Shown: positions 3,229 to 42,542 of the stretch, in pieces
Layout: the number at the start of each line of letters is the position of its first letter
Numbering within the stretch: the stretch's first letter is position 1
Source: a virus
Taxonomy: Duplodnaviria > Caudoviricetes
DNA length: 64,000 nt
Direction: 5' to 3' (one strand)
IMG/VR virus record: IMGVR_UViG_2907233695_000001
Span: 32,001-96,000 of that record
The notes under the pieces: generated by a model
What the model was told of the DNA's origin: nothing
The model's input: only the letters and a program-made list of their open reading frames with translations
Database searches by the model: none
Made by a program: the position numbers and the translations under genes

Positions 3229-3612
3229 ATGACTAACAACCACGCAACTAACGAAGAGATGGAACTAATCAAGAAGCACATTATCCTTCCCTTGATGCTG
3301 GATGTAGTGCAGAAAAACATAGAGGATTTGAGCCTCAATCAGTCTACGCTTAAACCACTTTACATTGCTTCCTGCGAAGCCGTGATGAATCTAATCCATC
3401 AGGATATGGCAGAGAATAGAAAGTTGCTTAAACAAGCTAACATAAAGATATTTGATCGAGATCAATCCAAGTATCCTTTGTTCCACTATCCATACATGGT
3501 GCGAGGATACCATTTCACGTTTCAAATGCGCAGAGAGTTAATCAAGAGTGAGATGAGCACGATGCTCCCCAAGTATGTCAATCGCGTTATCCAAATTATG
3601 AATGGGCAATGA
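3229..3612 (+). CDS. YhjD-like SOS-inducible protein
   Basis: HIILPLMLDVVQKN...LKPLY pattern recalls Bacillus YhjD; LexA-boxed promoter upstream. Confidence 0.55.
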   Translation: MTNNHATNEEMELIKKHIILPLMLDVVQKNIEDLSLNQSTLKPLYIASCEAVMNLIHQDMAENRKLLKQANIKIFDRDQSKYPLFHYPYMVRGYHFTFQMRRELIKSEMSTMLPKYVNRVIQIMNGQ

Positions 3613-3622
3613 AACCGAGATT

Positions 3623-3817
3623 TTAATGCAACTCAATCTTCTTAAATCTTGGTTTTGCACCATGTTCAGTCTCAACAAATCCGAAGAACATATCCTTTGG
3701 ACGTAGCCAAATGTTGCCACTTTCATTCTGATACACAACATATTCTTCTAGTGTTTCCGTATGTACGCCTTCACCAATGTATGTATAGATTCCACCTTTG
3801 TAATGCTGAAACTTCAT
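3623..3817 (-). CDS. DUF1653 family protein
   Basis: HYKGGIY...HTETLEEYVVY...WLRPKDMF signature. Confidence 0.85.
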   Translation of the reverse strand: MKFQHYKGGIYTYIGEGVHTETLEEYVVYQNESGNIWLRPKDMFFGFVETEHGAKPRFKKIELH

Positions 3818-3833
3818 ATTTTATCCTCCTATG

Positions 3834-3891
3834 TATAGATGATATAATCACTACCAAGATTTAACTCGGTAATGTGATTATATCATCTATA
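3834..3891. repeat. 18-bp perfect inverted repeat
   Basis: TATAGATGATATAATCAC (3834-3851) / GTGATTATATCATCTATA (3874-3891). Confidence 0.85.
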
Positions 3892-3925
3892 GTTTATTTT
3901 AAACAATACTTTTTCGTAATTTATT

Positions 3926-4438
3926 TTAACTAATTCTTAGATGCATTTTATCGGTAATGAGCTGCACACCCTCAATTTCTTTACCTGCTTTCAAATCCTC
4001 TAGGATGCTCTTATTATCGATTTTGTCAGGTTGAGGGATACGATAAGCCTCTGGGATTTTTGTCTCATCTACAACGCCAACAGATGGGTTGTTCTTTTGT
4101 AGTCTTGCAGTAAACTTACCAGCCTTAATCTTATCAATGCCATTTACCTCAAGAACACTTTGCGTATATGATTTCAGGCCATCAAACTTATTCTCCAGAT
4201 ACTTGCGCTTTTGAGCCAAACGTTTCTCTTCTTCTTTATACGCCTTAATATCCCCTTCGATATTCTTCATAAACTTGGCGATATTCTCAACCTTATTCTC
4301 CAATGCATCTTGAATGCCATCAAGAGTATCGATGAACATCTGCAAATCGTCTTCGGTCAAATCCTCTTGATCCAATGCAGCTTCAACAAATTCATTAAAT
4401 GCTCTGTACTGGTCAGCCAATGCGTAAAGTTGTGTCAT
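3926..4438 (-). CDS. Siphovirus Gp157 family protein
   Basis: LYALADQY...KVENIAKFMKN...EEKRL...KIPEAY...KIDNKSILEDLKAGKEIEG; ATG 4438 has an RBS. Confidence 0.85.
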   Translation of the reverse strand: MTQLYALADQYRAFNEFVEAALDQEDLTEDDLQMFIDTLDGIQDALENKVENIAKFMKNIEGDIKAYKEEEKRLAQKRKYLENKFDGLKSYTQSVLEVNGIDKIKAGKFTARLQKNNPSVGVVDETKIPEAYRIPQPDKIDNKSILEDLKAGKEIEGVQLITDKMHLRIS

Positions 4439-4560
4439 ATGTATACACTCTCCCATTATTTATTTAATATTATTTATGTATTTTGCATTTAATTTATGTC
4501 GTTAAAATTACAATTTCATCGTAATTTACGTATTAAAAATTCCTTATAATCATTGATTTT

Positions 4561-5406
4561 TTAAACAGCCTCGTGGTGCAATTTTTTTAATCTCTCAACG
4601 GTTTTTTCACAATATCCTCGATCCTGTTCAATACATATCCATTTTCTATTGTTTATCTCTGCTGCAACAGCCGTAGTTCCACTACCGCTTGTATTGTCAA
4701 GAACAACATCTCCTTCACTTGTATAGGTTTTAACCAGCCACTCAAATAATTCAACAGGTTTTTGAGTTGGATGTAATTTGCCACTAGAGTTATGAACACA
4801 TTTTATGTATAACATTTCATTTTCAAGTTCTAATGCATCTAATGCATAAGCGTCTTCATAATCAATTACATCATCTGGCATAAGCCAATCACTTTGACGA
4901 TCTATGTATTCTTCTCTCTGCTTACCGTAATTTGTTGTCTTAGAGTTTGTCTTATTCCCTGATTTAACTTGAAATGTTCTTGGAATCTGCTGCGGATTAT
5001 AAGTTGGAGGATTTTTATAAAATACAACAATATCCTCAAATGCACCCATCGGCATTTTCCTAGCATTGAGATTTCCTGTTTTTAAATTTTTGCGCCACAC
5101 CATACAATATTTGAATAGTTTTTGGTTACTCATTATAAGCATACTTGTAAATGGTTGTTTACCAGTTAAAACGATTGCTCCGTTATCAGCAATGATTCTC
5201 TCGTACTGTTCCCAAAGTTTGTTAAAAGGAATGACTTCATCCCATTTATTTTGAGTTGTACCGTATGGAAGGTCAGCCAAGATTAGATTAATCGATTTTT
5301 CTGGTAATTTAGACATTTCTTCAATAGTTTCACCATTTAAGAGCATACCAAATTTATTGTAATAGAAACTTTGTTTTGCCAGTTCTCCTAATTTGATAAA
5401 TATCAC
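4561..5406 (-). CDS. Orphan N6A/N4C DNA methyltransferase (beta class)
   Basis: DLPY catalytic motif, HPTQKP, LDNTSGSGTT SAM-binding motif; no restriction gene adjacent. Confidence 0.9.
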   Translation of the reverse strand: MIFIKLGELAKQSFYYNKFGMLLNGETIEEMSKLPEKSINLILADLPYGTTQNKWDEVIPFNKLWEQYERIIADNGAIVLTGKQPFTSMLIMSNQKLFKYCMVWRKNLKTGNLNARKMPMGAFEDIVVFYKNPPTYNPQQIPRTFQVKSGNKTNSKTTNYGKQREEYIDRQSDWLMPDDVIDYEDAYALDALELENEMLYIKCVHNSSGKLHPTQKPVELFEWLVKTYTSEGDVVLDNTSGSGTTAVAAEINNRKWICIEQDRGYCEKTVERLKKLHHEAV

Positions 5407-5488
5407 CTCAAAGTTATTGTTTAATTAAGATAAAATCATGTTTTCGTGGGCTTTTCTGTTTTGAAAAACCCTTATAAATGCTGAATTT

Positions 5489-5914
5489 TTAACACATGTC
5501 TACCACGGTCAAAACTTTCCTCAAGTTGTCTTTAAACTCATCTAGTGTGTAATAAAAAGCAGTATAATCATTTCCATGGTTCTCAAAATGACACACAACC
5601 CACTTGGGCAAATTTTCAAATTTGTGTTTATGTGCATGGCTCAACCAAGACATCCATGTATTATCATCGGCATTTCCTGAGTGCAACTGCTCATATAGTT
5701 CAACCTGTGTTTCATCTTCAAAATAAACTAATTTAATTTGCTTGTTGTAAGCAGGGAAGTAATCAGAGATGTCAATTTGATTGATAAGATTAAGTGTCTC
5801 GTGAACTAATGCATCTTCTTCTCTTTCGAATTCTCTTCCATCTGCTGTGACAAAAATTTCTTTCTCTTGCATCTGCTCAACTTTTACAGGAACTTGCTTC
5901 ATGATCTTTTCCAT
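5489..5914 (-). CDS. Hypothetical phage protein
   Basis: 141-aa ORF with RBS GGAGGAG. Confidence 0.7.
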   Translation of the reverse strand: MEKIMKQVPVKVEQMQEKEIFVTADGREFEREEDALVHETLNLINQIDISDYFPAYNKQIKLVYFEDETQVELYEQLHSGNADDNTWMSWLSHAHKHKFENLPKWVVCHFENHGNDYTAFYYTLDEFKDNLRKVLTVVDMC

Positions 5915-5931
5915 TCTATATTCTCCTCCTC

Positions 5932-6244: not shown

Positions 6245-8102
6245 CATGAGGAAATGCTGCTTTTATCAACTTTCAAGTTCATTAAGAAGATATCTAAACT
6301 CGGCTAATTTTGTACAATAAAATTCATATTTCTGTTGCGCTAACTCATATTTATGCTTATGTTCTATTCGTTCTTGATCAAAATTAGCAACACATTTTTC
6401 ATAACTATTAATATATTTTTGTAAATTGGCCTTGGTTGATTCAATGCTCATTTTAGAATCCCTTCCTTATAAATTCTTTATTGCGAATAAAAATTACTGA
6501 ACTTGTCTTCGATTGATTTAAGCTTATTCATAACAATTCGCAAGTCCTCTTCGATTTCTTCTTTAAACCTCTCAATACTACCGTCATAAAAGTATAAATC
6601 GGCAGATAAATCAGTTGCTTTACATTTGAGTCTATGGTACTCATGCAAATATTCAATGGCCTGATTTTTCATATTTCACCCTTTGAAATCCAAGTTTATT
6701 GTAAATCACTTTTGTTACAATACTCATGACAACTTTCTGCCTCTGTTAAGAAGTCGCCTATTGGTTTATTAAATTCCCCACAATAAATCATGTATATTTT
6801 TTCTTTGACATCACTACTTCTAACCTCGCACCATCCATCTGTATGAATACATCTAGTGCATGATTTTTCATTGTCCCAATTAGGGAATAACTCTTTAACT
6901 TTCGAAACCAATTCCTCCCAATCTTTTCCCACCTCGGCGCACTCCATTCGAAATACAGATTTATTTGCTTAAATACTCAGTATATCTATTTGAATTTGCA
7001 GCAAAATCATACAATACATCGACAAACTTGTCTGCGTTTTGATTGCCGCTATCGTAAGCAGCGTTCACAATTCTCCATAGATCAATCGCATCTTCTAAAG
7101 ACATTGTAAGTGTGAATTCTGGCTTAACTGGCTTCGTTGTTTCATTTAACTCCATGCATCATTCTCCCATTGAAATAAGATTTTTATTTGCCTTTTCATT
7201 CTGGTTGCATAGAAATAAAGTAATTATCTAAATCATCAATATGTTCCATTTCCTCTAAGTTACCATTGTCTTTTGCAGAATAATAACCTCGCTCCAATAA
7301 TTTACGAAGTAGATGATAATCCTTTTCGGTAATTTCAATTTGTAATGTTTTCATTTTTAACCTCCCTATGAAAGAAGAATTTTAATTTATTTTCTTTCGA
7401 TAACATTTGCGGCATATGTTTTAGGGTAAGCCCCAATTTTACCTAGAGCTTTTAAAATAATGTCCTTTTCAGTGGAATTTTCTTCAATTTCAACCTCTAC
7501 AACTTTAGATGCTTTCATGAATGGATTTGGTACATAAACACCAAAGTAAAAATAAACATCATACGTTTTTATTTTCATCATCCTCCAAATACTTCTCCAA
7601 TGCCCACTGAAGATGCTGCGACTTAGTTTGGTACTCCACTCTACTCATACGAATGTCATGGAGCACCTTCTTTATGTCCTTACCCTGTCTCATTATTTCA
7701 TTAACCATATCATCAATCTCATTTTTGTTTATGTATTCAATTACTTTGTTTATGTTTATCAACACCAGTTCTCAACTTGAAGTGTTCTTCACCTTTGACT
7801 TCCTGTTCAGTGGATCGTCTACATCTTAAGCAGCGGTTCAAATGTTCGCTTGCATATAGTTCAACTTCGTGGCCTTCAAATGCACAGTGGATACAGGTCT
7901 CTTTAGTTATGGCTTCTCAACTCCCTCAATTGCTCAAGTGCCTTCAGTTGATCTTCGAGCGAGTATTTGCCGAGGAGAGTTGCAAGCTCAGATAGAACAT
8001 CATCAAATTTTTCTTCTGGGATTGAATGAATCAGTTCTTTAAAATTCGATAATGACTCTTTCGGTTCCATGTTATCAACTCCCGTTGAAAGCATTGTTTG
8101 AT

Positions 8103-8900: not shown

Positions 8901-10025
8901 GTTATTTCTCCTTTTTTTATGTATTAAAGGTTTATTTATCTTCGATTCCGTCAATTTCTATATAATATAACCTTGATAACAAACTTTTGGGGTCTTTACC
9001 TCCTACTTTTCCGGTTAAAATCTACCTTTCATTTCCAATAAATGATTGGATTAGCCCAAAAATGAATCATTTGTCTAATTGATTTATTTATCACTTCTTT
9101 TGTTTCTTCAGTTAGATTGTCTTGCTTAAGCAAATTCAAGAAATAATCCATTTCCTCTTTAAAATTATCCCAAGTTTTTAATTTAACTTCTTCCAATTCC
9201 ATAGGTGTAGTAATTAATTGTGATGGCAATGCTATATCTTGTTCCAATAACTTCACCTCGATTCCAATCAAATTTGCCTTTCAAAGGTATTTATCAATGA
9301 ACCATTGACATCCAAAAGAGAACATGGCTATGGAAACTATTAAAACTTTTTCAACTCTAAATTGAGTTTGTTCCACTATTCCATAAGAGATTCCAAACAT
9401 TAAGGATGACCAATTCCACTCTGCAAACAAATTTACATTCTTAGTCATTCTTTCCTCCGTATTCATTTCATCTATTGTAATTCCAATTTATATAATTAAT
9501 TTCTAAATGTCCTAACGATAAAGTCCAATCAAGACAAGAATCGATTCCTTTTCTTGCTCCATTCGTACTAATCCCCCATTGTGCTTCCGTGTTGGCATCA
9601 GAATCATCTGGATATAGCCGTTTATTTTCTTTTCTGATTCCACGAAACCACGATATATTTAAAGTTCTTGTGTTCTTTTTCCACCACAATTCAAAAATTC
9701 TCATTTTCATCTCCCTCATAAAATTCGCTTTTCAACGGTTTTTCAACTCGTCAATTTCATTCTGCTGGTCTTCGATTATCCTCTTTAACCTATCAATGAA
9801 TAACTCTTTACCGACCATCAATTCATTTACTCTGTTCGTCTGTGATTTAAGACGCTTAATCTCTTCTTCGTACCACATGTCATTATTCTTTACTTTTCCA
9901 AGTGTATAATTTACTTTATCTGCTGCAAGAGATGCGATATGATCCATCTGTTCATTACTTAACGTAACATTAAAACTTAAACCCTTCAGAGTACATCACC
10001 TCACTTTCCTCAAGAAAGTTCCATT

Positions 10026-10298
10026 TTATCCAATTACTCGATACCTCGTATAGTGCTCATGAACTTCTGGCTCTAGAATTTTTTCATCGACCATTCGATT
10101 GATCAAGCGCTCTCCCTGTTTATAGCCTACTCTACAAGTCCTTTGTAATAACGATACAGAAGCGTATGCCTCATTCTCCGGATGGCTCTCTTTGGCTTTT
10201 ATTACAGCAGCTACAGCAAGAGGATATTTTTCTTCTTCCTGTTGTCTAAGAAATGCTTCCCATCTTTCATTTTCTTCTTTTTTTGGCTTCTTAGCCAT
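10026..10298 (-). CDS. Stand-alone FtsK/SpoIIIE gamma-like winged-helix protein
   Basis: ASVSLLQRTCRVGYKQGERLINRM matches the gamma-domain consensus ASxSxLQRxxRIGYxRAxRLxxxM. Confidence 0.7.
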   Translation of the reverse strand: MAKKPKKEENERWEAFLRQQEEEKYPLAVAAVIKAKESHPENEAYASVSLLQRTCRVGYKQGERLINRMVDEKILEPEVHEHYTRYRVIG

Positions 10299-10329
10299 TA
10301 AGTTTATGCCTCCTCATAAAAGTCCAATT

Positions 10330-10695
10330 TCAAACCCATTCCATCAACTCTCGAACAGTAGGAATATCGGCCTCAAGAAAATCATACATCCAAAGTTCAT
10401 CTCTCTTAATCCAAGCTAAAGCTTCATGTTCGTAAAGTACTGGTTTACCCAATTCGATATCGCACATATATGTAAGCAATCGAATGTTGTCGTGTTGAAC
10501 ATCTTTTACCATATCACCGACTTTTACTTCGCATCCAATCTCTTCGATTACTTCTCTCCGCAAAGCTTCTTCAGGGGTTTCGTCTTCTTCAACTTTCCCA
10601 CCAATAAACTCCCATTTGTTATATTTATATCGCTTACCACATAAAAATCTGTCAGTATCGCTGTTATAGATTACTGCTCCGACAACTAATTGCAT
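10330..10695 (-). CDS. Nudix hydrolase (MutT/NudG-like)
   Basis: Nudix box GGKVEEDETPEEALRREVIEEIG; C-terminal FLEADIP. Confidence 0.9.
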   Translation of the reverse strand: MQLVVGAVIYNSDTDRFLCGKRYKYNKWEFIGGKVEEDETPEEALRREVIEEIGCEVKVGDMVKDVQHDNIRLLTYMCDIELGKPVLYEHEALAWIKRDELWMYDFLEADIPTVRELMEWV

Positions 10696-11563: not shown

Positions 11564-12567
11564 TCAATAAGCATTCCTTTGCAATCTCATCGAATTACGT
11601 GTTGCTTCCAATACCTGTATAACAACATCTAATGATTTAATGTCATCGAATTTCATAACCACATGTGTATCAAAACTGTCTAATGTTTGTCCTTTTGACT
11701 CCTCCCACTCTGATCCAATTTCTCTTGGTTGCGACAGTATAAAAGCAACACCTTCTGTACGCCCATTATCATCTTGGATGTCTCCGACAAATATATCTCC
11801 ATAACCAAAATGCAAACACTTTATATTGTCCCTAGTGACGATTGGCATCTTTGCCCTCCTTATAAAAACCAAATTTCCTTAGCTTTTAATTTATTTCGCA
11901 GAGTCCTCAAACAGCTTAATTTCCTCTAGTATTTCTTCAAAAGCTACCCTTGCCAGATCGATTGGGTCATCCATTCTCCAACTCCTTTGAGTGATAGTTG
12001 CAATGTAATTTAATTTCCGTTTTGTCAGTTCAACTAACTCCCAAGCCTTCTTCTCACTATCAATTAGACTGTAAATTTCCTTTTTGTCTAATCTCACATA
12101 TCCATCATAATCAGCGTATTGCAAAGCAAGGTCTTTTTCGTTATCGTTCATTGTGCTATCCCCTCCTAAAATTTCCCCTTGAAAACGTCATTTTATTGGA
12201 AATATGCTTTAGAAAAACCCTTATATATCAAGGGTTTTTCAACTGGTACTTAACCTTAATCCTGCCCCAATCCCAATCAGATGAGAAATCAACATATTTA
12301 ATCTTCTCAGAGTTCTCTCTGATCCATTTATGCATTAAATCAATTGCTTCGTTGTGTGTTTTCCCTTCAAATGTTTTAAATAGCATTATGTATTTTGATC
12401 ATAACTCCTCAGTCCTTGTAAATTGATTGGAAGATAATATTCTGGGTTAGTATCCTGCTTTTTAATTTCCTTCTGATGCTGCCATTTTGATTTATTATTG
12501 AAATACGGTTTATATTTACTTTTTTCACTTTTAAATATTGTGGTCAACTTATCAACCTCCAAAAAGT

Positions 12568-14762: not shown

Positions 14763-15108
14763 TTGTCATCTCCTGTTGTGTATATTGGTGAAAATGCTCT
14801 CTAGAACTTTCTGTTTGGATTATTCTAGAGAGCGTGGATCGAACGTTGTTATATGTATTATTCAGTTTTATTCTGCAAGCGTGAAATCAACGTAATACTC
14901 TTTGCCCTCTTCAAATTGTTCTTGCGCTTTCTCGTTATCAACGCTCATCTGAATTTGACCAAATGGCGTATATTTCCAAAATTGCTCATTCTCTTCTGAT
15001 CCAGAAATTACAGCCTCTAAGCGTACACTATTTCCTTCTTTAAAAGCGCACTTGAATTTTGCTCTCACCATGTTTCTTCACCTCACTTTTTCATTTAAAA
15101 TAATTCTT

Positions 15109-16080
15109 TTATAGGGATTTCGTGTACTCATACATTGCTTGCAGAGTTTTTTCATCCTTAACATCTTTATACTTAGCAGTCTTAAACTTATCCGTCAATC
15201 CTTTAGCGAGTTCTTTCTTCTGATCCTGAGACAGAGTTGCAATAATGGTATCGATTTTAGAAATCAATTCATCAACTTTATTGCCTTCAGGATTACTCAA
15301 ACTTTCTGCTTCTGCATTTAGAGTCTCATCGAAGTTTTTAATTTCTTCTTTGGTAATCTTTCTGCCAGTTTGAGCCTTTGCAATAGCTGCTTTCCAATGA
15401 TTGTAATTTGGCATTTCTACGATATCGCCAATGTTAAATGTTTTAGTACGATCCTTTTCAACTTTTCCAAAAGACTTTCCATCTTTAGTATAAGTTTGAA
15501 CAACAACATCGAAATCAAATTTACTACCCTTTGGAAGATTCGGCTTCACTCCAACTTTAACACTAATTTGATTACCTTGAGCGTCTGTACGGCTCTCAGT
15601 TTCATCACTGGCTTCAGCAACATAGGATAGATTTTTACCCATCTTCACATATGTTAGAAGCTTTGCAAAGAATCTGTCATAGTGCAGACCCATTACACCG
15701 TATTCCTTAAACGAAAGCCCTTCGCCTTCAAGAAGACGATTAGATTTTCTAGCACGTTGTTCAACCACTTTTAGAGCAGCATGTTTCATGTTCTCATGAT
15801 AGCGAGTAGCACTATCAATATTGATCGTTTCTACTTGATTGAACAGTTCTTCATCACTTTCAAAATCGTCTAGATCATCATTCATTTCTTTAAAGACAAG
15901 AGTATTGGACTCCATCAAAATGTTGTCATTATACTCTTCGTAAAACTTAGTCCCACCATCACTATCAAACAATAGTTGATTAGGGAAGGAAAGACCAGTT
16001 GGAGTCTTCCCTGTCGCAGATTCACCGTACCAAAGAAATGTTACACCTTCACGTTTTTTCTCGCGTTTTTGCAATGCCAT
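15109..16080 (-). CDS. Sak4/AAA_24-like ATPase (YorG-like)
   Basis: YGESATGKT, FDSDGG, INIDS, EKDRT. Confidence 0.8.
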   Translation of the reverse strand: MALQKREKKREGVTFLWYGESATGKTPTGLSFPNQLLFDSDGGTKFYEEYNDNILMESNTLVFKEMNDDLDDFESDEELFNQVETINIDSATRYHENMKHAALKVVEQRARKSNRLLEGEGLSFKEYGVMGLHYDRFFAKLLTYVKMGKNLSYVAEASDETESRTDAQGNQISVKVGVKPNLPKGSKFDFDVVVQTYTKDGKSFGKVEKDRTKTFNIGDIVEMPNYNHWKAAIAKAQTGRKITKEEIKNFDETLNAEAESLSNPEGNKVDELISKIDTIIATLSQDQKKELAKGLTDKFKTAKYKDVKDEKTLQAMYEYTKSL

Positions 16081-17362: not shown

Positions 17363-17714
17363 TATTTTTTATACATTATTTTTCGTTTTTTATTTAATTA
17401 TTCTCCGAGGAATTTACACCATGAAACATGAAATTCATTTGGTTATGATCTTAACGATATCTCCGCAATGCAACTTTACCAATCAATTGAAGATTGCTGC
17501 TTTTACATGGTAATTTAAAACCATACCAATCATCAGCACCTATGTATGATCCTCTAGGACAGACATAAACTAAATAATAATTACTTCTAAAAAGCCAATA
17601 TCTCCACGTGTCGATTGTAATCAGATAATTATCTATATAAAACTGATGCGTTTCTCCTGCTGGAGTGTTGAACAATAAATATCAACTCCCAAGGAAATCT
17701 CAATTTCTTTGGTT

Positions 17715-18433: not shown

Positions 18434-21400
18434 CCTTTCCCGATAAATCTTCGAATTTATCCCCAAATAAAGTATCCAATTCCGATTCCAACACCCAAGC
18501 AAAGCAGCGGTAAAACAATACAATAAAACAGGATAGCGTTTGCCATATCGTTCAAAAGACTATTCAACGTTTTCCTCCTTACACCTGAGCAACTTTTGCG
18601 TCTTTTTCAAAAAACTTTGGATCATAATTTTCCAAAACTTCCTTAACTGCCTCTTCGTAATTCCACTTATTAATAATCAAAGTTCTTTCTTTATTTGTAA
18701 AGACAAACATTTCTTAAATCACCTCTTCACTATGTATATACTTAGGCAGTTCCTCTAACTCTTCACATCTTAAACACTCGATATAAGGCTCAAAATGAAT
18801 ATCAACATTGACTCTCCCTTTGCCATGTCCACATTTCAAACATTTAAAAGTTATTTTAATCATTCTTCAATTATCTCTACTGTAATTCGTACCTTCATTG
18901 TCTTTACGCTTTGCAGTAGGTCACACAGTGTATCTGCTGGATAAATCCCTCGTTCTGCATCTTCCTTTGTATCAAAGATGCCCAAATCATCGTAATTTCC
19001 ACCAAGCCAACCCTCGATAATCAATATATCACCTCACGAAAGATTCATTTTATCGAACCTGAGTAATTGTGACATCAAACGACACATCGAACTCACCATT
19101 ATCATAATAGCCATTAAAAATTTCAATTAAGTGGCATTTTGAGCACTTTGCGTACCCCAACGAATCAATGTATCCATTCGATATATGATCATCAGAGCAG
19201 GAAGTTCGGCTATGATTAAGTAAACTTAAAATAATATCTCTATATTGTTCCAGACCATCAATTTTTTCTTTAACAATTTTTCTTTTCTTCTTCATTTCTT
19301 GTTCTTTTATTGCGTTCTTTCTTGATTCCAACTCATTTTGCAGCTTCTCGATTTCTTCAATCGACATCGAATTAATGTCCTTTTCCATCCTTACCTCCCG
19401 TTGAAAGATGACTCTGTTTTCGCTCTACATTTTAAGCAAAAGGTGTAACCATCAAAATTCAATTTTTCTGCATCGTGCTTTGCAAATCTCATCAAAATAA
19501 ACGCTATACCACCATCTATTAATCCTTTTGGAGTTTAATTTGAAATGATGCTGAATATACTGTTCTTTTCTTATATTGTTGAACACGAAATCTCTTACAG
19601 TGATTTTCAATCCAACTTCAATAGGAATTACTCGATATGCGTTATCCATTCACACCATCCACCATCCTGTTGAAAGACTCGATTTATCTTAAATTTCTTA
19701 ACTTCTCCAGAGTTTCAATCATAATCATTTTTGCCTCTTTATATTTCAATGGACTAAAATCTCTCGATGATTCGTCGCTATAGTTCCACAAAGCTCTGCA
19801 CATTATTGTAGCCAAATCCCAATCATCATCCATATTTATATATGAAGCAGGAGGCTCTAACTCCTTAAATTTATTTAACTCTTCGTCAGACGGAAGTTCT
19901 CCATAATATTCGATTTCAAACCACATGCTAATCACTCCTGTTAAAAGAATTGTTTTAACGTAAAATTTCAAAATACTTACCATCAATAACTGGTTCAAAC
20001 TCTCTACCGTTATCATCTATAATACAGAATTCTCCGTCTTCATTCATATGCATTTCATAGACTCTACCTGCGGTTGTCATTCGATAACCTAGAATATTAA
20101 GATTTCTAATACAAATGACTTTCATACCCCTATTACCACCTTATGAAAGTATTATTTCAAGCGAAAACAAATTGACTTGTTACAGGATTATAGTTCCTAA
20201 AGTAGCCAGATTTGCATCAAGTCCAGTCATTTTTCTGTCTTGCTCATGACAAACTTTCTTTAATTCCTCAATTAATCTCTGCGCTGTTAAGGCACGATCC
20301 TTTAAATGTTGCTGCATCAGTTCTTTCATTCCGACATCTCCTCACGAAATATTTGTTTTATCTGTAGTATCGGCAGATTCTTTGAAAATTACATCGAAAT
20401 CCTTGCTTGATAGTTTCTTCAATAATTTGATGTGTTCTTTTGTCCAACCGTTTACTTCAAGCAATTCTGCTTCAAGAAGATGGTCAACCGCTTCCTTAAC
20501 CAAATCCTCAACCTTGACATCCATCTATATATCACCCTCTACTTATCTTCGAATTTCTTAATAATCTCTTCTGCTTCTTCTTCAGTACCGACCTTTTCAA
20601 CGAACATAGCCCAATTTTCTTCAATAAATTCTTTAATCATTACCTTTTCGTAAAACTCCAACTCATTCATATCTGAATCTCTCCCTTAATAAAATTATCT
20701 TTTCATTACCTAATCTTCGATTCTTGACCAAGAACAATTAATCTTCTCATGTAACCATTTATCATAATGGTCTTCGATCAAAGACTCTGCCTCTTGTTCA
20801 CTCAAACCGTCAAAATCTTCATCATCAATCTCATATATATCTTCTCGTTTACTTCCTGCATATCCAGTGCTAACACTAAAAATTTAGCCATATCTCAATC
20901 CCAACCCCTCTGTTATTTGAATGAACTTAACCTTTCATCACTCTTTACATTCATCGCAAACTTCACGGTGGTGTCCACAATCCAAACAAGGTTTTCCAAC
21001 ATTCCCACAGTGAAAATGGTAACTAGTAACTGTCCCATCGTTCTCCATGCGATTTAGAGAAGCATGTTCAAAAGGGATTTCATAATTACATTTCCCACAT
21101 CTGTTTTCCATTTTAATTACACACCCCTTCGAAATATCTATTTTATTCGCTTATAATAGTCTTGATTCGTCTCAACTGATCCAACGTCAAATCAATCTTT
21201 CCTAAAGTATCAAATACTTTTCTTATCTCCCATTGCAATTTGCTAACTTCCTCTTCGTCTAGAATTTCCTGCTTAGAAAAGTACAACTGCCAATCTGCAA
21301 TATACCCTCCCATTTTCTGCTGCTTGTCTTCGATTCTAAACTTAAGTGGCCTTAAACCATCGCCCACCTCAAAATACTTCCTGCCAACCTTAGATATGAT

Positions 21401-21833
21401 ATCCTCTCTAATATATACTTCTTTTCGACCTCTGGCATTATTCCCAACGGCCTTCAGATATACTTTGTCTCCAACTTGCACCTTTATCACTTCCTCATGA
21501 AATTTCGGTTTCATCATCCACAACCTTATCACCAGAAACAGATGATGAAACCGAACAACAACTTTAGATTTCTTCTAGTGCTCCAGCACCCTGTAATTCG
21601 TTTACTCTAATTGGAATAGCATTGCCCTTTAGCCCAACCCCATCATCACAGATCATCTCTAAATTCACTTGCTGTCTTGTGCCTAGCAATAGGCTAGTCA
21701 ATTCATTTTGTGCGCCATCAATGCCCACAGTCCAAAATTTCATTCCATTACCACTAGTAGTTACGGTTATAAATCCAACTTCGAAGGATAATTCTCTTCC
21801 ATCAACTTTGATCGACGATAATTTCTTTTGCAT
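18434..21833 (-). other. Array of small co-oriented accessory genes
   Basis: About 12 short ORFs (e.g. 19050-19388, 20342-20524, 21143-21481, 21564-21833) with junction motifs. Confidence 0.7.
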
Positions 21834-32431: not shown

Positions 32432-32517
32432 TTTTACACCTCCATCAATCTCGCTCATGTTCTCTAATGCTCTGTTTTTCATCATCATTTTTACAATGAA
32501 ATCTGAATTTTAACGAC

Positions 32518-35277: not shown

Positions 35278-36936
35278 GATGAACTCACCTCATGATGTCT
35301 TCTTCCTTCATAAATAATGGGTAGCAACGCAATCCGAACATTGTTATGGTCTCTTTGCTTATCTTTTGCAGTAGTATCATAATTCTTCGTACTATAATTT
35401 AGTTTTAGCTCACTGTACTCATCTAATTGAAAAACATGATAGTCAGTTATGTCGTACATGACAGCAGGTTTAAGAATATAGTCATCGCATATTTTCACTG
35501 CTTTTGATTCATCTGTCCCATTAAGTTGAAATCGTTTAATTGCTTCTTTAATAATATGCTGATACTTCGCCTTACCTTCACCAGCGATTTTACCATTGCT
35601 ATAAGTTGCGTTTATTACAGGGAGACTAAATACCCAATAATACTTAGCCCACCAATTCCAACCGTCTCGTATCTCTGTCACTGTAACTTTTACACTTTTT
35701 AGAGGTGGCAATCCTTCAAATAACCTATCGAACATATTTGGTTCGCTATTATGGAAATTTGAAAAATCAAACGTCTTTGATCTGATTTTAGGGTCTTTTG
35801 ACCAATATACGTCTTCACTTTTTCGCATAGTAGCCTCCGCAAAAGATTATTTGTTTTCAACCACCAGTCCGATTGATTTTAAATATTCAATTTGAGCATC
35901 CGTTATCAGCAAAATGTCTTCTATTGTGTACAACTTTCCTTTATTCTTCAAATAATCTTGAATAAACTCTGCTTCTTCGAGTTCATCTACTTTCACTAAG
36001 ATCACTTCTCCTTGAACAATGTTGTGTACCAAACACTCCTTAACTTATAAGGAAAGACGAGTTTCATAAGCTTTTAAAAATTTCAGTAAGATCAATGGCA
36101 TCTTCAAATGCAATCTCATGAATATAGCATTCTCCAGAAACAACTTCGCCATTGTTCCTGATTTCAGTGCATACAATACCTCCACCTGAATATCGAAGCG
36201 GAATAACTATGATATTATCGCATCTTGGCAATTTTAAAATTTTCATACTTACCTCCAGTTGAATCACAAATTTTAAGCCGATTTAACTAATTTACTTTTA
36301 ATCTGCTGTAACGATAAATCTTTAACCATTCTACAGTAATAATCAAAACTGCTGGAATTCAAATCTTCGACTGTTATAAGCTCATCTGTATAGTTGTCGA
36401 TGATATCAACTTTGAATCCATTCGGCTTTTCAAAAATTACAAAAGTTACATCAGCGTAGTAATCATGCTCATCAAGGATTGTTTCTGCTGCATCTGCTGT
36501 TATGTATTCACTGTTAGAAATAATCCGCTTAAGTAAATAGTCTCTTTCAATAAATCGAATCCTCTTGGCATTTTTCACGTTTTAAATCCTCCCATATTCC
36601 TTTTTAGCGTCATTGACTGCCCACACAATACCAACCATTACAGCAAGCCATAGGATCGAACCTAACGCTTTCCACCAAGTTGAATCTATAAAGTCCATAC
36701 ATCGGCCTCCTCTTTATATGTATCCCGTTCCTCTTTGGTGTGGAATACGCTTAATATAGAACTACGATAAGTTTTTACACGTTGCTTTCCGTTAATAAAA
36801 ACAGAAGCCAAGTATTTTTCTTGCTCTGGATAATAATCCTTAATGATTGCTTTACCCAAACCATTAATCCAAACTGCTTGATTCTTTGCGAAGATCATTT
36901 TTTGTTGTCCTCCTGTTATATGATAAATCGAAGATT

Positions 36937-37425
36937 TTATCGAGGTAAATCACGAGAAAAGACAGACCCACGCTTAGGTGCTGCTACTTCTTCTGGAGCA
37001 ATCCCTTTACCTACTACACTCAAACGGCCTTCATCGTACCATTGCCCATCACGAGGCTTACCATCTTTATCAACTGGAGGTTCTACCCAATATTGATTAC
37101 AATTATGAAGGTTTTCAATTACCACTAATACCTTACCTCGAAAACCAGACACTTTATCCTGAACTTCTGTACCCAGAGGAATAGCATATATTTTTTGATA
37201 TTCATCTTCTCCATGCACTGCTTTAGAATCATCGACAATTTCAATTCTAGACTCATCAAAATACTCCGTTTTCTTGGGTGTTCCATCTGATGCTAATTCT
37301 TGAGGTGCTATGCCATATTGAGCACATCCGAACAAATGAGCGTTACGAGCAATAATAATACCTTCAAATCCAGATACACTGTCTTTAGCTACTACGTTCA
37401 TTGGATAATTAAATTTTGTTTGCAT
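36937..37425 (-). CDS. Protein made of two tandem copies of one small domain
   Basis: DxVSGFxG...LxxCxQY...P...DGxP...DExR occurs twice. Confidence 0.75.
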   Translation of the reverse strand: MQTKFNYPMNVVAKDSVSGFEGIIIARNAHLFGCAQYGIAPQELASDGTPKKTEYFDESRIEIVDDSKAVHGEDEYQKIYAIPLGTEVQDKVSGFRGKVLVVIENLHNCNQYWVEPPVDKDGKPRDGQWYDEGRLSVVGKGIAPEEVAAPKRGSVFSRDLPR

Positions 37426-40400
37426 TGTAGTCCATCTCCTAGTTTTTATTTTGTTATGATTAAAAAAGCTGCTCTTTATCAAAATTCCTCAATTGAGACC
37501 AATTCATAATTACAACAATTTTTAATCGCCTCGGCTTGAGCAAGAATTAATGCTTCTTTCTCACAAAATGCATAAACTGTAGTCGTCCATCCAATCAATC
37601 TCACTTCATATTTCTTAGGTTTCATTTTTCATCTCTCCTGCTATCGAATAAAATTGCTTTTTCATTAGTTCAATCTAATCACATGTTGAGTCTTACACTT
37701 TTTACATTCTACATAGAAAGAACCAATATATTCCCAATGATGTTGATGCAATAACTTACAAATTAACTGTTTCAATTTTCAAATTCCCCTTTGCTTCAAT
37801 ACTTCTGGCCTCATACTCTGCATCCGTCTCGCTGTTATAGCAGGTTTTACATTCATCATAGAAACCAAAATGAACCTCTCCACAATTGCTACAGACTTTA
37901 AATTCAACCTCTACCATGCACACTCAACTCCTATGCATAATTTAGTTTTCAACTTGCCTGAGCCAATCCTAGAGCCTCTAAGACTTCATCATAGATACCA
38001 TTGTCATAGATAAACTGATTTACATGTTCAACTTCTTCATTGGTGAGCGAGATTTCAAAAGCCTCCGTACCTTCAAGCAGTGCCGTTATGATGATTTCAC
38101 CATCTGGATCATAAACCAGATTCAAAATAGTCACTACGTTAACACCAATCTCAGCAGCTTCGGCCTGAGTCAATTGCACATCTAACAATACTTCAACGAA
38201 TTCCTCTGACTTTAACACCATTACCAAACCTTTTGCTTTCATGTTCAAACACTCCTCTTGATGTTATTAGAGTAAAGATTGGTTTCCAGTTAGGCGAGTA
38301 ACATTTGGGGCAAACCATCGTTTTCTCTTGATACTCCGCAAAGGTAAATTGAGAATTACATCTTTTACATTCTTTTTTACACATTGTCATATGTATTGGT
38401 TCATCTCCTGTTTTATAGGATATTATATGCACTGGCCTATATTCATGTTACAATTCAATTCATATATTTTTCTTTTATAACTTTTGCAATGGCCTCGTTA
38501 ATCTTATACGTATCATAACCGATGTGTATTTCGTAAATAGTGAAATTGCTGTATGCAGGAAATTTGCGTGATGTAAGCTTGAATGGTTCGCCTGATCTAA
38601 TCCGCTGCAATAGTTCTTGAGTGGTTATTCCAGACACATAAATCAACTCCTCGCAAATTGTTGCTCCTTATTGATAAAGTCAATCATGTTATCAATAGCC
38701 TCGCTTCTAGACTTACCAAAAGCCACTCTGCCAAACAAATCTTCAACCACCCACATAAAGCCACGTTGATAAATTGAAAAATTCTCTTTTTGTTTGTTGC
38801 CGTTAATAATTTCTTGAAAGTCAAATTCACTGCCCATGTTTATCTCCTCCATTCCACAATTTAATCAATTCATGCTAAATGCTACAACTAAATACATCTT
38901 GTTATCAATAGTAAAAACTACTGTTCGGATATTTAATACATCGGAAATAACATAAGAATTTAATTTGGCATATAGATTAATTTTTCATCCCTGCTTTCCT
39001 TGTGATTCAGTGGCATAAATTCCAGCCACCCGTTTGTGCCTAGCTAAAACTTTTCATTGTCTCATAGTCTCATCTCTCCAATGGTTTATGCTTTATATAA
39101 ACAAGAAACATTATCGAGCCATTCTCAATCTTTTGAACATCATATACATTCATTAATTAATCCATTAGAATATTTCTAACTACAAACATTTAGTTTTTCC
39201 TCCATATATTATCCCTAGTAAATCCATAAAAAACCCACAAGAAGAACCAAGCCGCTGTTACTGACGTTCCAATTACACCTAGGTTTACATTTTCTAATAT
39301 GCCAGCTAAAGATACATAAGAAAATAACAATCCGAAAGACAATGAGAATATCTGTATTAGTAACATAAATATTTTTACTGCAATATGCTTATTTTTCATT
39401 TTTAACCTCGTTCAAAAGGAGTCATCGATTCAAGTCCATATACATTTCGTTTGCCATTAACGACATTGCTTCTGTGTTATTAGAAATAAGCATCATCATA
39501 AATGTTTCGTACACCTTTCTATATTCTTCTCCAGTTAAACCCTTACGATTTGCAACCTGTCTAAACTCTCCAAGTAAAGCACGTGCTTTCGCATCATTGT
39601 TTAAAACATCGATTACTTTTTGACTAATCATTTTAGACACCATCCCCTCGAAATACTTCTTTTATTGTACTTCTTTTTCCAGTTGCTCAAGTTGTTCTGC
39701 AATAAAATCAATCTGCTCCTGTGTCCAATCATCATCATATTGCCAATCATTCATTCTTAAGTTTACCTCCTCATGAAAGAATCCTTTTATCGTCTTTTTT
39801 CTAATTCTACTCGTGTTATGTCTTTTTCATTAATTCCATGTTCCTTTGTTGCTTTTTTAACTGCGTATTTTTCATCGTTAGCTATAATCCGAGTAAATAT
39901 CTCCTTACCGTTTGAAAGAGTATGGTAAACTAAATAGAAAGGTTGCGCCGTTAATCCGTTCATTTTACTTCATCTCCTTTTAAAATATTCAATTCATCAG
40001 AACCATTTGCCATAATAGTGTTCATCCTGCTTTTTCTTTGATAAGGTGTTACATTGATTTTGCTCATCTTTCAATATAATCTCTTTATCATCTTCATAAA
40101 CAATCTCATACAACTGACCCTTTGTAAAAATTATAGAAATGCAATCTTCTACACACATTAGGTTTCGTTTTTTTGATTTATCCTTTTTAATTTCATCTAA
40201 GTGATTAATTAAAAAGTCTTTACCCTCAATTGAAAGATGAATATTTTTCATTAGTTTATCAATCCTTTCTCAATCATCCATTGTCTTGTATTGCTTGAAC
40301 AGTGGTCATAAAACCCTTTTTTAACAATCCACTTTCCAGCATCAATCATATTATCAAATGTTTTTAAAACTTTCGCCGCTACATTTGAACTACCAGTGTA

Positions 40401-40547
40401 GTAAGTGTTTTGTTTAACTTGAATTTTTCTACTACCTGAAGTATTTTTTTGACTAGACTCCTGAAAAAATACAATCACTTTGTTTTCCATTTTTGAAAAT
40501 CCTCCTCATCGAATGAAAATATAGTTTCATTACCATTTGTTACCTTA

Positions 40548-40576
40548 ATATTAGCACGTTTACATATATAAATCAA
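40548..40576 (-). promoter_or_regulatory. SigA promoter with operator palindrome
   Basis: TTGATT-17-TAATAT; TTTACATATATAAA 40559-40572. Confidence 0.7.
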
Positions 40577-40716
40577 TATGTATTTTCTATATTTTACTTA
40601 ATTTATTTTCTTTATTCATATTAAAAATCCCACATATCAATTATTCATTGATACATGGGATCATGTTTTAAATTTAAATATAAACGGCAACTAGTAACAT
40701 CCCTTTCGACTGTTGG

Positions 40717-40869
40717 TTACATGACCAGCATTATTCTAATGTTTCCTTGTTCAAAACGCTTATCTTTCTCTGCTTTGCTAATTGCTTTCTGAGGATCAAT
40801 ACCCCATTCAATAAGTTTATTCATCAGCATTTCCTTTGTAAAAGCTCCTTTGCCAACAACAAGAAACAT
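40717..40869 (-). CDS. 50-aa protein downstream of mazF (not in ORF track)
   Basis: RBS AGGAG; MFLVVGKGAFTKEMLMNKLIEWGIDPQKAISKAEKDKRFEQGNIRIMLVM; terminator-like hairpin at ~40627-40661. Confidence 0.6.
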   Translation of the reverse strand: MFLVVGKGAFTKEMLMNKLIEWGIDPQKAISKAEKDKRFEQGNIRIMLVM

Positions 40870-40897
40870 ATAATCGACTCTCCTTTTAAATTTTTAT

Positions 40898-41272
40898 TTA
40901 TACACAAGCAGCAACTTGTTTTTCTGGAATATAATTAAACAATCCAAAACTAATCATAAGAGCCTCATCAACTTTAGTCATATCTCTTGTACTAACAACT
41001 GCGTCTAGTTTATGTAATACTCTTCCCTTATCTACAAATCTGCATTGTTCCAAAAGCGCAATGCTGCTTTCTTTTAAATTTAGATTAACATGAGTAGGTA
41101 ACATTTTTTTAACCTTCGAAGTAATAGGACAAATGCCCACAACTGGTGAAAATCTATTTCCAATGTCATTAGAAACAACTAGACATGGCCTCAATCCTTT
41201 TTGTTCAGCTCCCACAGCGAAGGTTAAGTCGCAAAGCACAATATCTCCACGTTTGATTTCTAATTGATCCAT
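40898..41272 (-). CDS. mazF: MazF/PemK (NdoA-like) endoribonuclease
   Basis: KRGDI...GAEQKGLRPCLVVSNDIGNRFSP...ITS...LPTHV...LLEQ...KVDEAL; catalytic Arg and Thr retained. Confidence 0.92.
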   Translation of the reverse strand: MDQLEIKRGDIVLCDLTFAVGAEQKGLRPCLVVSNDIGNRFSPVVGICPITSKVKKMLPTHVNLNLKESSIALLEQCRFVDKGRVLHKLDAVVSTRDMTKVDEALMISFGLFNYIPEKQVAACV

Positions 41273-41318
41273 ACTTTTCACTCCTATATCTAAATTCATA
41301 TTTTATGTTTATAATCAC

Positions 41319-41362
41319 ATTATACTGTTCCAATTAACCAAACACAAGCGAACATTTGTTTT
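41319..41362 (-). promoter_or_regulatory. mazF promoter with adjacent LexA-like box
   Basis: TTGTGT-17-TATAAT; CGAACATTTGTTTT at 41349-41362. Confidence 0.6.
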
Positions 41363-42430
41363 ATTTCCAACTTGTCAATACTATTTTCTGTTATGAAAAT
41401 CCATCTTGAAATATGCTCCATTTTATGGTATCGGCATCATCAATCACACCCCTTTGTATATCTTATTTATACCCAGTTTGTACATATGCTAATCATTTAA
41501 TCATTAAATTATAATCATATTTTCATTTTTAAGTAATAAAAAATCACCTCCAGCTTGCGGAGATGATCCTAAAGAAATCTACATTTTATGCTATGTCCGA
41601 ATCTCCAATTTCAAAAATAAAACCTTTGGATAAGCCTTCAGTTACTTTAACTTTGATTTTTTCACCTATGCTAACTATTTCAACTTCATCAGATATTAAT
41701 CCGATATAAGGGAAATCATGAGCATAAGCGAGACAAACCTTTTGACCAACTTCAAGCTTTTTCATTTGTATACAACTCCTTTAAATGAGAGTATGAATCA
41801 GTCATTTTATTGGAAAATCTCTTCAATGTCTTCTCTTTCGTTAATTTGCTCAAGAATGAAATCTAAGCCCCACTGAGATACTTCTTCATCGGACATCTCT
41901 TTAGGATCAAGCTTTCCAATACCTTCAGATAAGGTTTTTTCTAACATGTACTTTCCGTATTCCAGAGTTGTGTATTTATCTCCATCGATAATAAAACTTC
42001 TCATTTTCTTTCCCTCCATTTCACACAATAAAATAACCCTTTTATTTGGTAATAATATCCCAAACTAAATTAAATAAGCCTCGCTCAAACATAATGCTCT
42101 TGTACTCTCGCCATTCAGTATACGAAGTTGTGATACCCAATTTCGCTTTGTGATAACTGGTTTTAGCCTTAACAAAGAGTTCTTCATTGCTATATTCCAT
42201 ACTCAGCCCTCCAATCCTTTTCTTGTTCTGCTGCTTCTGATTTGCTTGCAACATAAATTGCGTCACCTATTTGGTTTCCTTCATGATCCTTCAACTGAAC
42301 AACCCACGAGCGTGTTCCTCTGTCGTACCATTTATCAACTTTAGCTGGTTTTTGTTCAGTATCTTCTAGTGAGAAGTTATATTTAAACTTTTTCATTTCG
42401 ACACCTCCTATGTATTTCCTTCTTGACTCC

Positions 42431-42459
42431 ATTATAACCCATATATTTATATATGTAAA
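42431..42459 (-). promoter_or_regulatory. SigA promoter with operator palindrome
   Basis: TTTACA-17-TATAAT; TTTATATATGTAAA 42446-42459. Confidence 0.7.
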
Positions 42460-42542
42460 GTTTTAATATCTATATTTTACTTTATTTATTTTCAAACGAA
42501 ATCATCTTTTCAATGGGAAAAGAAAAAGCCCTAAAAAAGGGC

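Follow-up and report, generated by a model that had tools for sequence, protein, structure and literature searches.

The window analysed here is a stretch of 64,000 nucleotides, bases 32001-96000 of contig C13 (164,118 bp; 35% G+C), and the element under study is a short palindrome, TRAAA-N6-TTTYA, that recurs at the junctions between its small genes, nearly all of which lie on the minus strand. C13 belongs to an assembly of 7.56 Mb with 50.7% G+C and is a complete large siphophage genome of the SPbeta type. Matches to SPbeta proteins include the terminase (69%) and HU-like YonN (47%), together with homologs of MrpR/YopR, YopQ, YopP and YotM, and there are further matches to proteins of Geobacillus virus E3 and of the Tsamsa-type 'Tyroviruses'. 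A related, equally AT-rich prophage is integrated at ~105-270 kb of the 53%-GC contig C203 in a genome of the same host genus (G002), and C13 is therefore not considered a contaminant. Part of another related prophage is held by contig C52 of a further genome of that genus (G005). The gap in GC content between phage and host, ~16-18 points for C13 and the G002 prophage, is unusually large for a temperate phage. No close relative of C13 was found among phages by megablast or in a collection of genome contigs, and an exact-protein look-up returned no record. IMG/VR contains one relative, phage G001 (its match to the query protein has 76% amino acid identity, and two genes are ~70% identical at the DNA level), a metagenome scan yielded one 2.8-kb contig, and the DNA identity between C13 and genomes of the same genus is at most 73%. 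Because C13 lacks a close relative, the breakpoint test described below was carried out on SPbeta-type phages and on the two prophages of the same host genus.

The 35 motif starts listed in the initial annotation all hold TRAAA-N6-TTTYA; 18 are exact, 16 have one arm mismatch and one (17693) has two (Table 1). Exact matches occur 19 times in the window, compared with 2.72 +/- 1.69 in dinucleotide shuffles (maximum 9), and a scan of spacings from 0 to 20 gave 19 matches at N6 and 0-6 at each other spacing. The nineteenth exact match (45806-45821) lies inside the 5' end of the open reading frame (ORF) 45541-45822, where the A before TGAAA gives ATG, and is probably no junction site but a chance occurrence or a piece of the start region. 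A stop-codon-conditioned null, which had been proposed as a check, was constructed from the 183 co-directional intergenic segments of the whole of C13 by fixing each stop codon and shuffling the remainder. The enrichment persists under this null, with 28 exact sites against a mean of 0.85 and a maximum of 5 in 2000 shuffles, and in the same segments every spacing other than 6 gives at most 2 exact sites. Stop codons that read TRAAA are followed by TTTYA exactly 6 nt later in 14 of 52 cases, and the twelve other spacings between 0 and 12 nt together give 2 cases. In the rest of the assembly (7.4 Mb) N6 shows no peak, on which ground a feature of the host was rejected.

The sites are confined to particular parts of the window. 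At one mismatch or fewer, copies occupy 19 of the 41 junctions between 3.6 and 21.9 kb and 10 of the 20 between 32.5 and 42.6 kb. The absence of the motif from core gene junctions was borne out, as an exact site is present at 0 junctions in 1-3.6, 22-32.4 and 42.6-64 kb; neither the lysogeny module (22-32 kb) nor the replication block (43-64 kb) has an exact intergenic copy. It had also been noted that the stop codon lies in or near an arm, and on the coding strand the TRA of the left arm is the upstream stop at 17 of the 35 sites. From the right arm it is mostly 8-30 nt to the following start codon; the gene calls come from a crude ORF/Shine-Dalgarno heuristic and some of these distances are artefacts. 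The 3610 site was described as carrying the stops of two convergent genes, and both stops do lie in its arms, one of them being that of a putative ORF. Two genes adjacent in SPbeta, yorG and yorH, were said to have counterparts here that are separated by ~12 kb of such units. For 2589-3320 the yorH-like assignment is upheld by a pairwise match (E 1e-6, 26% identity). BLASTP does not show the yorG-like assignment of 15109-16080 (E 0.12); both proteins have 323 amino acids, and the window protein matches Pfam AAA_24.

Table 1. Copies of the junction site and recombinase-fold proteins in the window
Feature	Position	Strand	Remarks
Junction site, exact	3610..3625	.	Coding strand TAAAA-tctcgg-TTTCA; stop of 3623-3817 (minus strand) in arm; other arm holds TGA of plus ORF 3229-3612
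Junction site, exact	4503..4518	.	42 nt past stop; right after terminator-like palindrome; upstream of AT-rich promoter-like stretch
Junction site, 1 mismatch (CGAAA)	5431..5446	.	After AAACCCTT-N7-AAGGGTTT terminator-like palindrome
Junction site, 1 mismatch (TTTCC)	6250..6265	.	Adjoins upstream stop
Junction site, exact	7171..7186	.	Next ATG 15 nt on
Junction site, exact	7369..7384	.	Stop 2 nt before, ATG 14 nt after; TTTCAtaGGGAGG
Junction site, 1 mismatch (TCAAA)	8086..8101	.	
Junction site, exact	9016..9031	.	First 3 nt of left arm are the stop codon
Junction site, 1 mismatch (TTTGA)	9268..9283	.	Left arm holds stop
Junction site, exact	9719..9734	.	Left arm holds stop
Junction site, 1 mismatch (TTTCT)	10013..10028	.	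Left arm holds stop
Junction site, exact	10317..10332	.	Identical 16-mer including centre in prophage G002:C203; flanks unrelated (34%, 24% ungapped identity)
Junction site, exact	12180..12195	.	After GAAAAACCCTT-N7-AAGGGTTTTTC palindrome
Junction site, exact	15096..15111	.	Stop of AAA_24 gene 15109-16080 in arm
Junction site, 2 mismatches	17693..17708	.	Weakest copy listed
Junction site, 1 mismatch (TTTCG)	19037..19052	.	Left arm holds stop
Junction site, 1 mismatch (TAAAT)	19671..19686	.	Left arm holds stop
Junction site, exact	19942..19957	.	Left arm holds stop
Junction site, exact	20144..20159	.	
Junction site, exact	20690..20705	.	Next ATG 19 nt on
Junction site, 1 mismatch (TTTCG)	21130..21145	.	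Left arm holds stop
Junction site, exact	21498..21513	.	Then tgaGGAAGTGataaagGTG; ORF call overlaps site, start choice uncertain
Junction site, exact	32497..32512	.	5 nt past stop
Junction site, 1 mismatch (TTTCC)	36051..36066	.	Left arm holds stop
Junction site, 1 mismatch (ATTCA)	36260..36275	.	Left arm holds stop
Junction site, 1 mismatch (ATTTA)	36924..36939	.	Left arm holds stop
Junction site, exact	37649..37664	.	Adjoins stop
Junction site, 1 mismatch (TTTCG)	39649..39664	.	
Junction site, exact	39774..39789	.	Identical 16-mer in G002:C203, 21/22 nt match; flanks unrelated (37%, 34%)
Junction site, 1 mismatch (TGAAT)	39981..39996	.	Adjoins stop
Junction site, exact	40514..40529	.	
Junction site, 1 mismatch (TTTCT)	41573..41588	.	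Left arm holds stop
Junction site, 1 mismatch (ATTCA)	41794..41809	.	Left arm holds stop
Junction site, exact	42029..42044	.	Left arm holds stop
Junction site, 1 mismatch (TTTCG)	42497..42512	.	After intrinsic-terminator-like hairpin
MrpR (YopR)-like recombinase-fold repressor	25393..26361	-	28% identical to SPbeta MrpR; lacks HxxR/H/Y block
YopP-like tyrosine recombinase, candidate enzyme	60095..61147	-	Pfam Phage_integrase and SAM-like N-terminal domain

The full site is longer than first noted. Its coding-strand consensus is A-TRAAA-N6-TTTYA-T-nn-GG, and the symmetry established for it is that of a 9-6-9 palindrome, CCNATRAAA-N6-TTTYATNGG. At ORF ends that have their stop in the arm (n=58, three phages of the clade), C is found in 50% at position -3 and in 60% at -2 (compared with 17-19% at other ORF ends), followed by R and by A in 83% at position 0. 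The mirror side past the right arm reads T in 81% at +17, N, G in 41% at +19 and G in 66% at +20. The inner TRAAA/TTTYA is near-invariant and the outer pairs A0/T17, C-2/G19 and C-3/G20 are conserved at 41-83%, while in SPbeta the arms are TYTRRA-TAAAA, which gives an 11-6-11 site. On the left, the arm extends into the last codons and the stop of the upstream gene, with CAA, CGA, CCA and CTA making up half of the last codons; on the right, the terminal GG is at the same time the GG with which the next Shine-Dalgarno sequence begins. The 6-bp centre has no consensus. All 37, 39 and 76 centres are distinct within the respective phage and each is unique in its complete genome. Exactly one arm bears a G:C pair (TGAAA..TTTTA or its complement) in 26 of the 32 intergenic C13 sites (Fisher p = 8e-4), a bias that is also present in G001 (33/39) and was not seen in G002. 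These asymmetric sites occur in both orientations with respect to the coding strand (16:10), and their order along C13 shows no alternation.

Palindromes that overlap stop codons and precede Shine-Dalgarno sequences could in principle act in the RNA. A hairpin that couples translation would have the upstream stop in its 5' arm and would mask the start of the next Shine-Dalgarno sequence with its 3' arm until the terminating ribosome opens the stem, in keeping with the 17 of 35 sites whose left arm contains the stop and with the GG fixed 3 nt past the right arm. We consider this very improbable, as there is no compensatory change between the arms, the commonest arm pair is an A-C mismatch (16/32), and RNA folding energies average -1.2 kcal/mol, close to the -0.7 of shuffles. 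In addition, the distance from motif to Shine-Dalgarno sequence varies in SPbeta, copies are found before promoters, after terminators and far from starts, and the symmetry continues into the upstream coding sequence. An RNA family was likewise rejected, since Rfam has no matching family at gathering scores. The variable mirror positions show no Watson-Crick co-variation and the pair 2/15 anti-co-varies (z = -4.2, 152 sites); for this reason the site works at the level of duplex DNA, as a predicted protein-binding site, and not as a hairpin. The half-sites are independent and lie one helical turn apart, and therefore a protein dimer on duplex DNA is indicated. In the late plus-strand region copies stand after the stop and before intrinsic terminators, and in the early region some copies follow a terminator-like palindrome and precede a promoter-like stretch; the arms are coupled to one another and not to a transcription or translation signal. 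A separate, near-perfect palindrome, (G)AAAAACCCTT-N7-AAGGGTTTTT(C), recurs beside junction sites (window ~5447-5500 and ~12196-12250, C13 ~123400-123450). It lies at a fixed distance of ~16 bp from sites in the early region and is probably a bidirectional terminator.

The site is spread across the lineage. Per 50 kb, SPbeta has 30 matches at N6 and 1.2 at other spacings (36 in the whole record compared with 3 for a reversed-pattern control), Tsamsa has 14 and 1.0, and E3 has 9 and 0.9. The IMG/VR phage G001 holds 39 sites against 5 for the reversed-pattern control, the G002 prophage holds 76 and the part of the G005 prophage on C52 holds 17. The Tsamsa-type phages carry the motif variant of SPbeta. 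The G001 ortholog of the AAA_24 gene 15109-16080 (76% amino acid identity) also ends in a site, whose centre is different. Lactococcus phage P1048 shows no N6 enrichment and a Staphylococcus SPbeta-like phage at most a weak one; both phages have recombinase homologs. P1048 (1-50000) has another spaced palindrome, ATTAT-N3-ATAAT, in 8 copies compared with 0.9 at other spacings. A description of the motif was not found in the searched papers on SPbeta, MrpR, Tsamsa and the Tyroviruses.

Several elements already described in these phages were considered and rejected as the identity of the motif. The ten SPbeta target regions of SPBRE, the MrpR operator, share the core AATATGTATA, which is unlike the motif, and several of them adjoin a motif copy. 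The proposed Tyrovirus attP beside gp50, GAAGATTAAGA-GTAACA-TCTTAATCTTC, has the same 11-6-11 geometry with other arms. A signal for a YonO-type RNA polymerase was dismissed because C13 has no YonO homolog. Downstream of the 4503 site, an AT-rich stretch at 4440-4502 (..aaatgcaaaatacataaataatatt..) resembles the SPBRE/MrpR operator region of SPbeta PaimR (76187-76230) and may be this phage's version of the master-repressor operator.

The evidence for a role of the sites in gene exchange comes from the last ~25 kb of SPbeta, phi3T, Goe11, Goe13, Goe14 and SPbetaL3, which are 92-99% identical where they can be aligned. Among the site 16-mers, centre included, that are shared by at least two of these phages (n=24), 15 have more than one unrelated 24-nt flank class on one side and 11 have it on both sides; for control shared intergenic 16-mers away from the motif the values are 7.1% and 0.6%. 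A single centre can be flanked by as many as 4 unrelated genes on the left and as many as 4 on the right. The sequence TAAAAGATCAATTTTA, for example, has four different left neighbours and two right neighbours, and at TGAAATCTGTATTTTA the flanks are reassorted, Goe14 sharing the left one with Goe11 and the right one with Goe13. Thirteen main sites are collinear in all six genomes while the distance between sites varies (465 to 1364 bp for one pair). To count as strict, a mosaic junction had to show 88% identity or more across 200 bp or more on its inner side and not a single common 9-mer in the 150 nt outside. Of these, 23 of 93 fall within 8 nt of a site compared with 2.1% expected, and for intergenic mosaic junctions the proportion is 17 of 45 compared with 11% expected.

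The alignment of relatives proposed in the initial annotation thus reveals joints at which unrelated genes have been exchanged, at 15 of 24 shared sites in the SPbeta-type phages, and its claim that genes are exchanged at the sites is upheld in the sense that the sites are preferred joints for unrelated genes in these relatives. As for the expectation that breakpoints fall in the 6-bp core, junctions are enriched at sites; homology usually stops at the outer edge of the 16-mer and not in the centre, the trace that a crossover anywhere within a shared site would leave. All joints common to phages have an identical centre, as predicted if partner sites have to match there; the sites were grouped by identical 16-mers, so that exchange between differing centres is invisible in this comparison. 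The word 'shuffled' does not describe the pattern, as from one related phage to another the centres and their order are kept and the contents between them are replaced.

The same observations bear on the proposal that the units are integron-like cassettes. In a true integron each cassette would carry an attC-like site, be excised as a circle and be integrated into a primary site by an integrase of the IntI type that works on folded single strands, and small co-oriented genes each trailed by an imperfect palindrome, together with tyrosine recombinases, would suit such a scheme. The centre, however, stays with the position and not with either neighbouring gene, which largely refutes this model. 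The site measures 24-28 bp and not 57-141 bp, there is no sign of a folded strand, and no attI/Pc/IntI module was seen in the phage, the sole match to IntI being marginal (E 0.73). The asymmetric sites, moreover, point both ways relative to transcription. The integron analogy is not supported on these grounds, and a true integron is regarded as extremely unlikely.

In the clade of the window itself, the G002 and G005 prophages have three sites in common whose centres are identical (19-22 identical bases each), whose order is the same and whose spacing is similar, compared with a chance expectation of 0.19 (a rough estimate), and the flanks of these sites show random-level identity. The only alignable block in the region is 362 bp long with 93% identity; it lies directly beside one of these three sites in G002 and elsewhere in G005. 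C13 shares two such addresses with G002 (window 10317 and 39774), again with unrelated flanks, where ~0.4 would be expected; these two are suggestive, close to chance and not significant alone. The 19-nt address of 39774 is also found in three IMG/VR contigs with unrelated flanks, each with one site, so that a chance match is possible.

C13 encodes two tyrosine recombinases with complete catalytic sets that are candidates for an enzyme acting on the sites. The gene at 60095-61147 had been named as a recombinase, and this assignment was confirmed. Its product is YopP-like, with ~31% identity to SPbeta YopP; aligned with XerD, it retains R, K, HxxR and H, and a Tyr follows 10 residues past the H. 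The other is a YomM-like protein encoded in the late operon, outside the window (C13 124851-125873), which has R, K, HxxR, W and Y and whose own stop codon lies within a site. The MrpR-like protein is probably not the binder, judging from its homolog, since SPbeta MrpR binds the SPBRE core and not the motif (PMC10516654). The YomM-like protein is 77% identical between C13 and G001 (15208-16227) and 82% identical between SPbeta and E3 GP28, with ~25% between the pairs, and the large terminases of C13 and G001 are 22% identical, against 77% for the YomM-like protein. Such conservation above the genomic background suggests recent transfer or strong constraint. A co-variation of the YomM-like protein with the motif variant looked promising in these two pairs (77%, 82%) and was given up when it proved not clean after the G002, G005, Tsamsa-type, P1048 and Staphylococcus phages were added.

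The YopP-like gene adjoins a gene for a RecD/Dda-like helicase (57396-61147). The same pairing is seen in Lactococcus phage P1048 (145-3497), where an annotated integrase lies beside an exonuclease V, and a helicase homolog is present in E3 (478-2649). On the other side of the recombinase, 61168-62667 encodes a 499-residue protein with a treble-clef zinc finger, NUMOD1 and an I-HmuI-like NUMOD, which looks like a free-standing homing-endonuclease-like gene. Other recombination genes of the phage encode the Sak4-like AAA_24 protein and a RecU-like YotM homolog. The YotM-like protein (C13 301-822, outside the window) is among the better conserved ones, with 54% identity to SPbeta and 59% to G001, and the phi3T YotM homolog is annotated as a PrfA/RecU-type putative recombinase. 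As a candidate Holliday-junction resolvase of the phage, the YotM-like protein could resolve junctions at sites with non-matching centres. The small cassettes also include an N6/N4 DNA methyltransferase (4561-5316) and a protein that matches the C-terminal part of DUF444 (8103-8900), a fragment relative to the 418-position model.

The favoured reading, with a probability of about one half, is that a tyrosine recombinase catalyses exchange between sites with matching centres and thereby swaps the segments between joints in register. The site would be a stretch of 24-28 bp of duplex DNA bound by a two-fold symmetric or pseudo-symmetric pair of proteins, with the inner 5 bp of each arm recognised specifically, the outer arms more weakly, and the 6-bp centre left free and different in each copy. 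The copies lie in short intergenic gaps, reaching over the stop of the gene before and the beginning of the ribosome-binding site of the gene after, and each would serve as a crossover joint with a fixed place and an address of its own. In a cell shared by related phages or prophages, DNA would be exchanged at copies with the same centre, and a gene or block between two joints would be replaced by an unrelated one with the gene order undisturbed. The catalyst would most likely be a tyrosine recombinase that binds and cuts the site as Xer acts on dif, the centre being the overlap region that needs to match; the YopP-like or YomM-like phage enzyme and a host Xer are candidates, and the same exchange would take place in the phage of the window. 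The inverted arms and spacer had been taken from the start as tyrosine-recombinase core geometry, and this likeness holds as far as the 9-11-bp inverted arms, the specific inner 5 bp and the free 6-bp centre are concerned, which are as in XerH/difH (PMC5241119). A wider claim, which we put forward tentatively and at somewhat less than even odds, is that a genome-wide scaffold of recombinase sites is present in SPbeta-type phages (SPbeta, the Tsamsa-like phages, E3 and the clade of the window, whose host genus has 51% GC), in which the 6-bp centres are addresses, a phage or host tyrosine recombinase exchanges only matching centres, and co-resident phages swap genes or blocks in register. If this were true, it would amount to recombinase-mediated cassette exchange occurring in nature, and the scaffold would explain the turnover of accessory genes, including anti-defence genes, with gene order kept.

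A number of observations weigh against recombinase-catalysed exchange. The direct support for this phage itself consists of the two shared addresses, which are close to chance alone, and 70 of the 93 strict mosaic junctions, or three quarters, lie elsewhere, more than 8 nt from a site. The best match of the YomM-like protein in the pooled set of G002 and G005:C52, both motif carriers, is 25%, and the Tsamsa-type protein is 32% identical to SPbeta YomM even though these phages have the same motif variant. The recombinase homologs of P1048 and the Staphylococcus SPbeta-like phage are not accompanied by a clear N6 peak. Only 5-6 bp per arm are strongly conserved, and the asymmetric sites face both ways (16:10), an arrangement in which classical directional sites would risk inversions. 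Short-homology recombination at any conserved element of 20-28 bp could yield the same mosaics. The action of a recombinase on the sites is a prediction from comparison.

In the main rival account, the sites are operator-like or architectural elements for a dimeric phage protein, for example in silencing or punctuation as by the L5 stoperators, and the joints are a by-product of relaxed homologous recombination at the sole sequences of 20-28 bp that otherwise unrelated cassettes share. Like stoperators (PMC9283540, PMC6550527), the sites are present in many copies in short gaps that overlap stops across a temperate phage, and a homology-driven use of joints has been proposed for the PeSLs of T4-type phages (PMC2839356). 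The same account is favoured by the lysogeny module without exact copies, by the SPbeta copies just upstream of the MrpR-controlled promoters of aimR, yorE and yosX, by the mosaic junctions away from sites and by the phage's own recombination genes. It is opposed by several features of the sites. Stoperators are asymmetric and face one direction whereas these sites are palindromic and face both, and ChAP-seq (chromatin affinity precipitation with sequencing) of the SPbeta master repressor MrpR gave only ten peaks, all at SPBRE (PMC10516654). The place of the sites relative to terminators and promoters also varies, being before terminators in the late region and after them in the early region. 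Both flanks vary at 11 of 24 sites in phages that are 92-99% identical elsewhere, which would need very frequent events for an arm homology of 5-11 bp. On balance we regard the by-product account as rather unlikely, though it deserves serious consideration.

Phage genomes are mosaic, and it is debated whether their joints arise at random and are then selected or lie at built-in linker sequences. The lineage examined here, which includes the model phage SPbeta, has a recombinase-site-like palindrome at about half of its accessory-gene junctions, with a private centre and a conserved order, and with both flanks exchanged. If a recombinase acts on these sites, they would represent a dedicated gene-exchange system in phages. 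Even if exchange is a by-product, the palindrome remains a cis-acting site not described before, one that restricts the C-terminal codons in dozens of genes. A laboratory parallel is provided by heterospecific lox/FRT cassette exchange, in which sites have the same arms and different spacers, only matching spacers recombine, and the segment between two differing sites is swapped for another flanked by the same pair. Those systems are engineered, whereas the phage pattern is natural and deduced from comparative genomics only; should a recombinase act on the phage sites, they would offer a natural orthogonal site set for the engineering of large phages.

Integrons share with the phage arrays the promoterless, co-oriented small genes, each with a trailing imperfect palindrome, and the chemistry of tyrosine recombinases. 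They differ in that attC (57-141 bp) is used as a folded single strand, travels with its cassette and needs IntI, attI and Pc, none of which was seen here. The PeSLs of T4-type phages (PMC2839356) are also short repeated intergenic elements in the hyperplastic regions of large phages and are exchange joints for modules of small accessory genes. A PeSL is a promoter plus a terminator stem-loop of ~50-60 bp that acts through homology recombination, whereas the phage sites are palindromes of 24-28 bp with centres of their own. Their stem is unstable (-1.2 kcal/mol, near shuffles) and terminators, where present, are separate elements; no -35/-10 pair was noticed within the site by eye, no promoter scan having been made. 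The stoperators of cluster A mycobacteriophages (PMC9283540, PMC6550527) resemble the sites as tens of short protein-binding sequences in short intergenic gaps that often overlap stops; they differ in being 13-bp asymmetric sequences that face one direction and are bound by a monomeric repressor, and no recombination role has been proposed for them.

The nearest known systems are Xer/dif sites and the pdif-flanked dif modules (PMC6449649). In XerH/difH a 6-bp central region, which is barely contacted, separates arms of 10-11 bp; base-specific reading is limited to the inner 5 bp of each arm, and the asymmetry of the arms sets the order of cleavage (PMC5241119). The phage sites likewise have inverted arms of ~10-11 bp with a specific inner ~5 bp and a strict 6-bp centre without consensus, and tyrosine recombinases with the R-K-HxxR-H/W-Y set are encoded (YopP-like, YomM-like), which are candidates for the cognate enzyme. 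A dif site, in contrast, is present once per replicon for dimer resolution, whereas a phage genome here has 30-76 sites at gene boundaries, every one with a centre of its own. The pdif/dif modules of Acinetobacter plasmids (PMC6449649) are closer in this respect, having many Xer-type 11-6-11 sites in the accessory region of one replicon and modules between sites that recur in differing contexts, as found at 15 of 24 shared sites in SPbeta-type phages and for the 362-bp cassette of G002 and G005. Those modules are plasmid-borne, depend on host XerC/XerD, are mobile between contexts and are flanked by inversely oriented sites (XerC/D then D/C), whereas the orientations of the phage sites do not alternate and these sites, in phages of Firmicutes, form an ordered positional scaffold whose contents are replaced in place.

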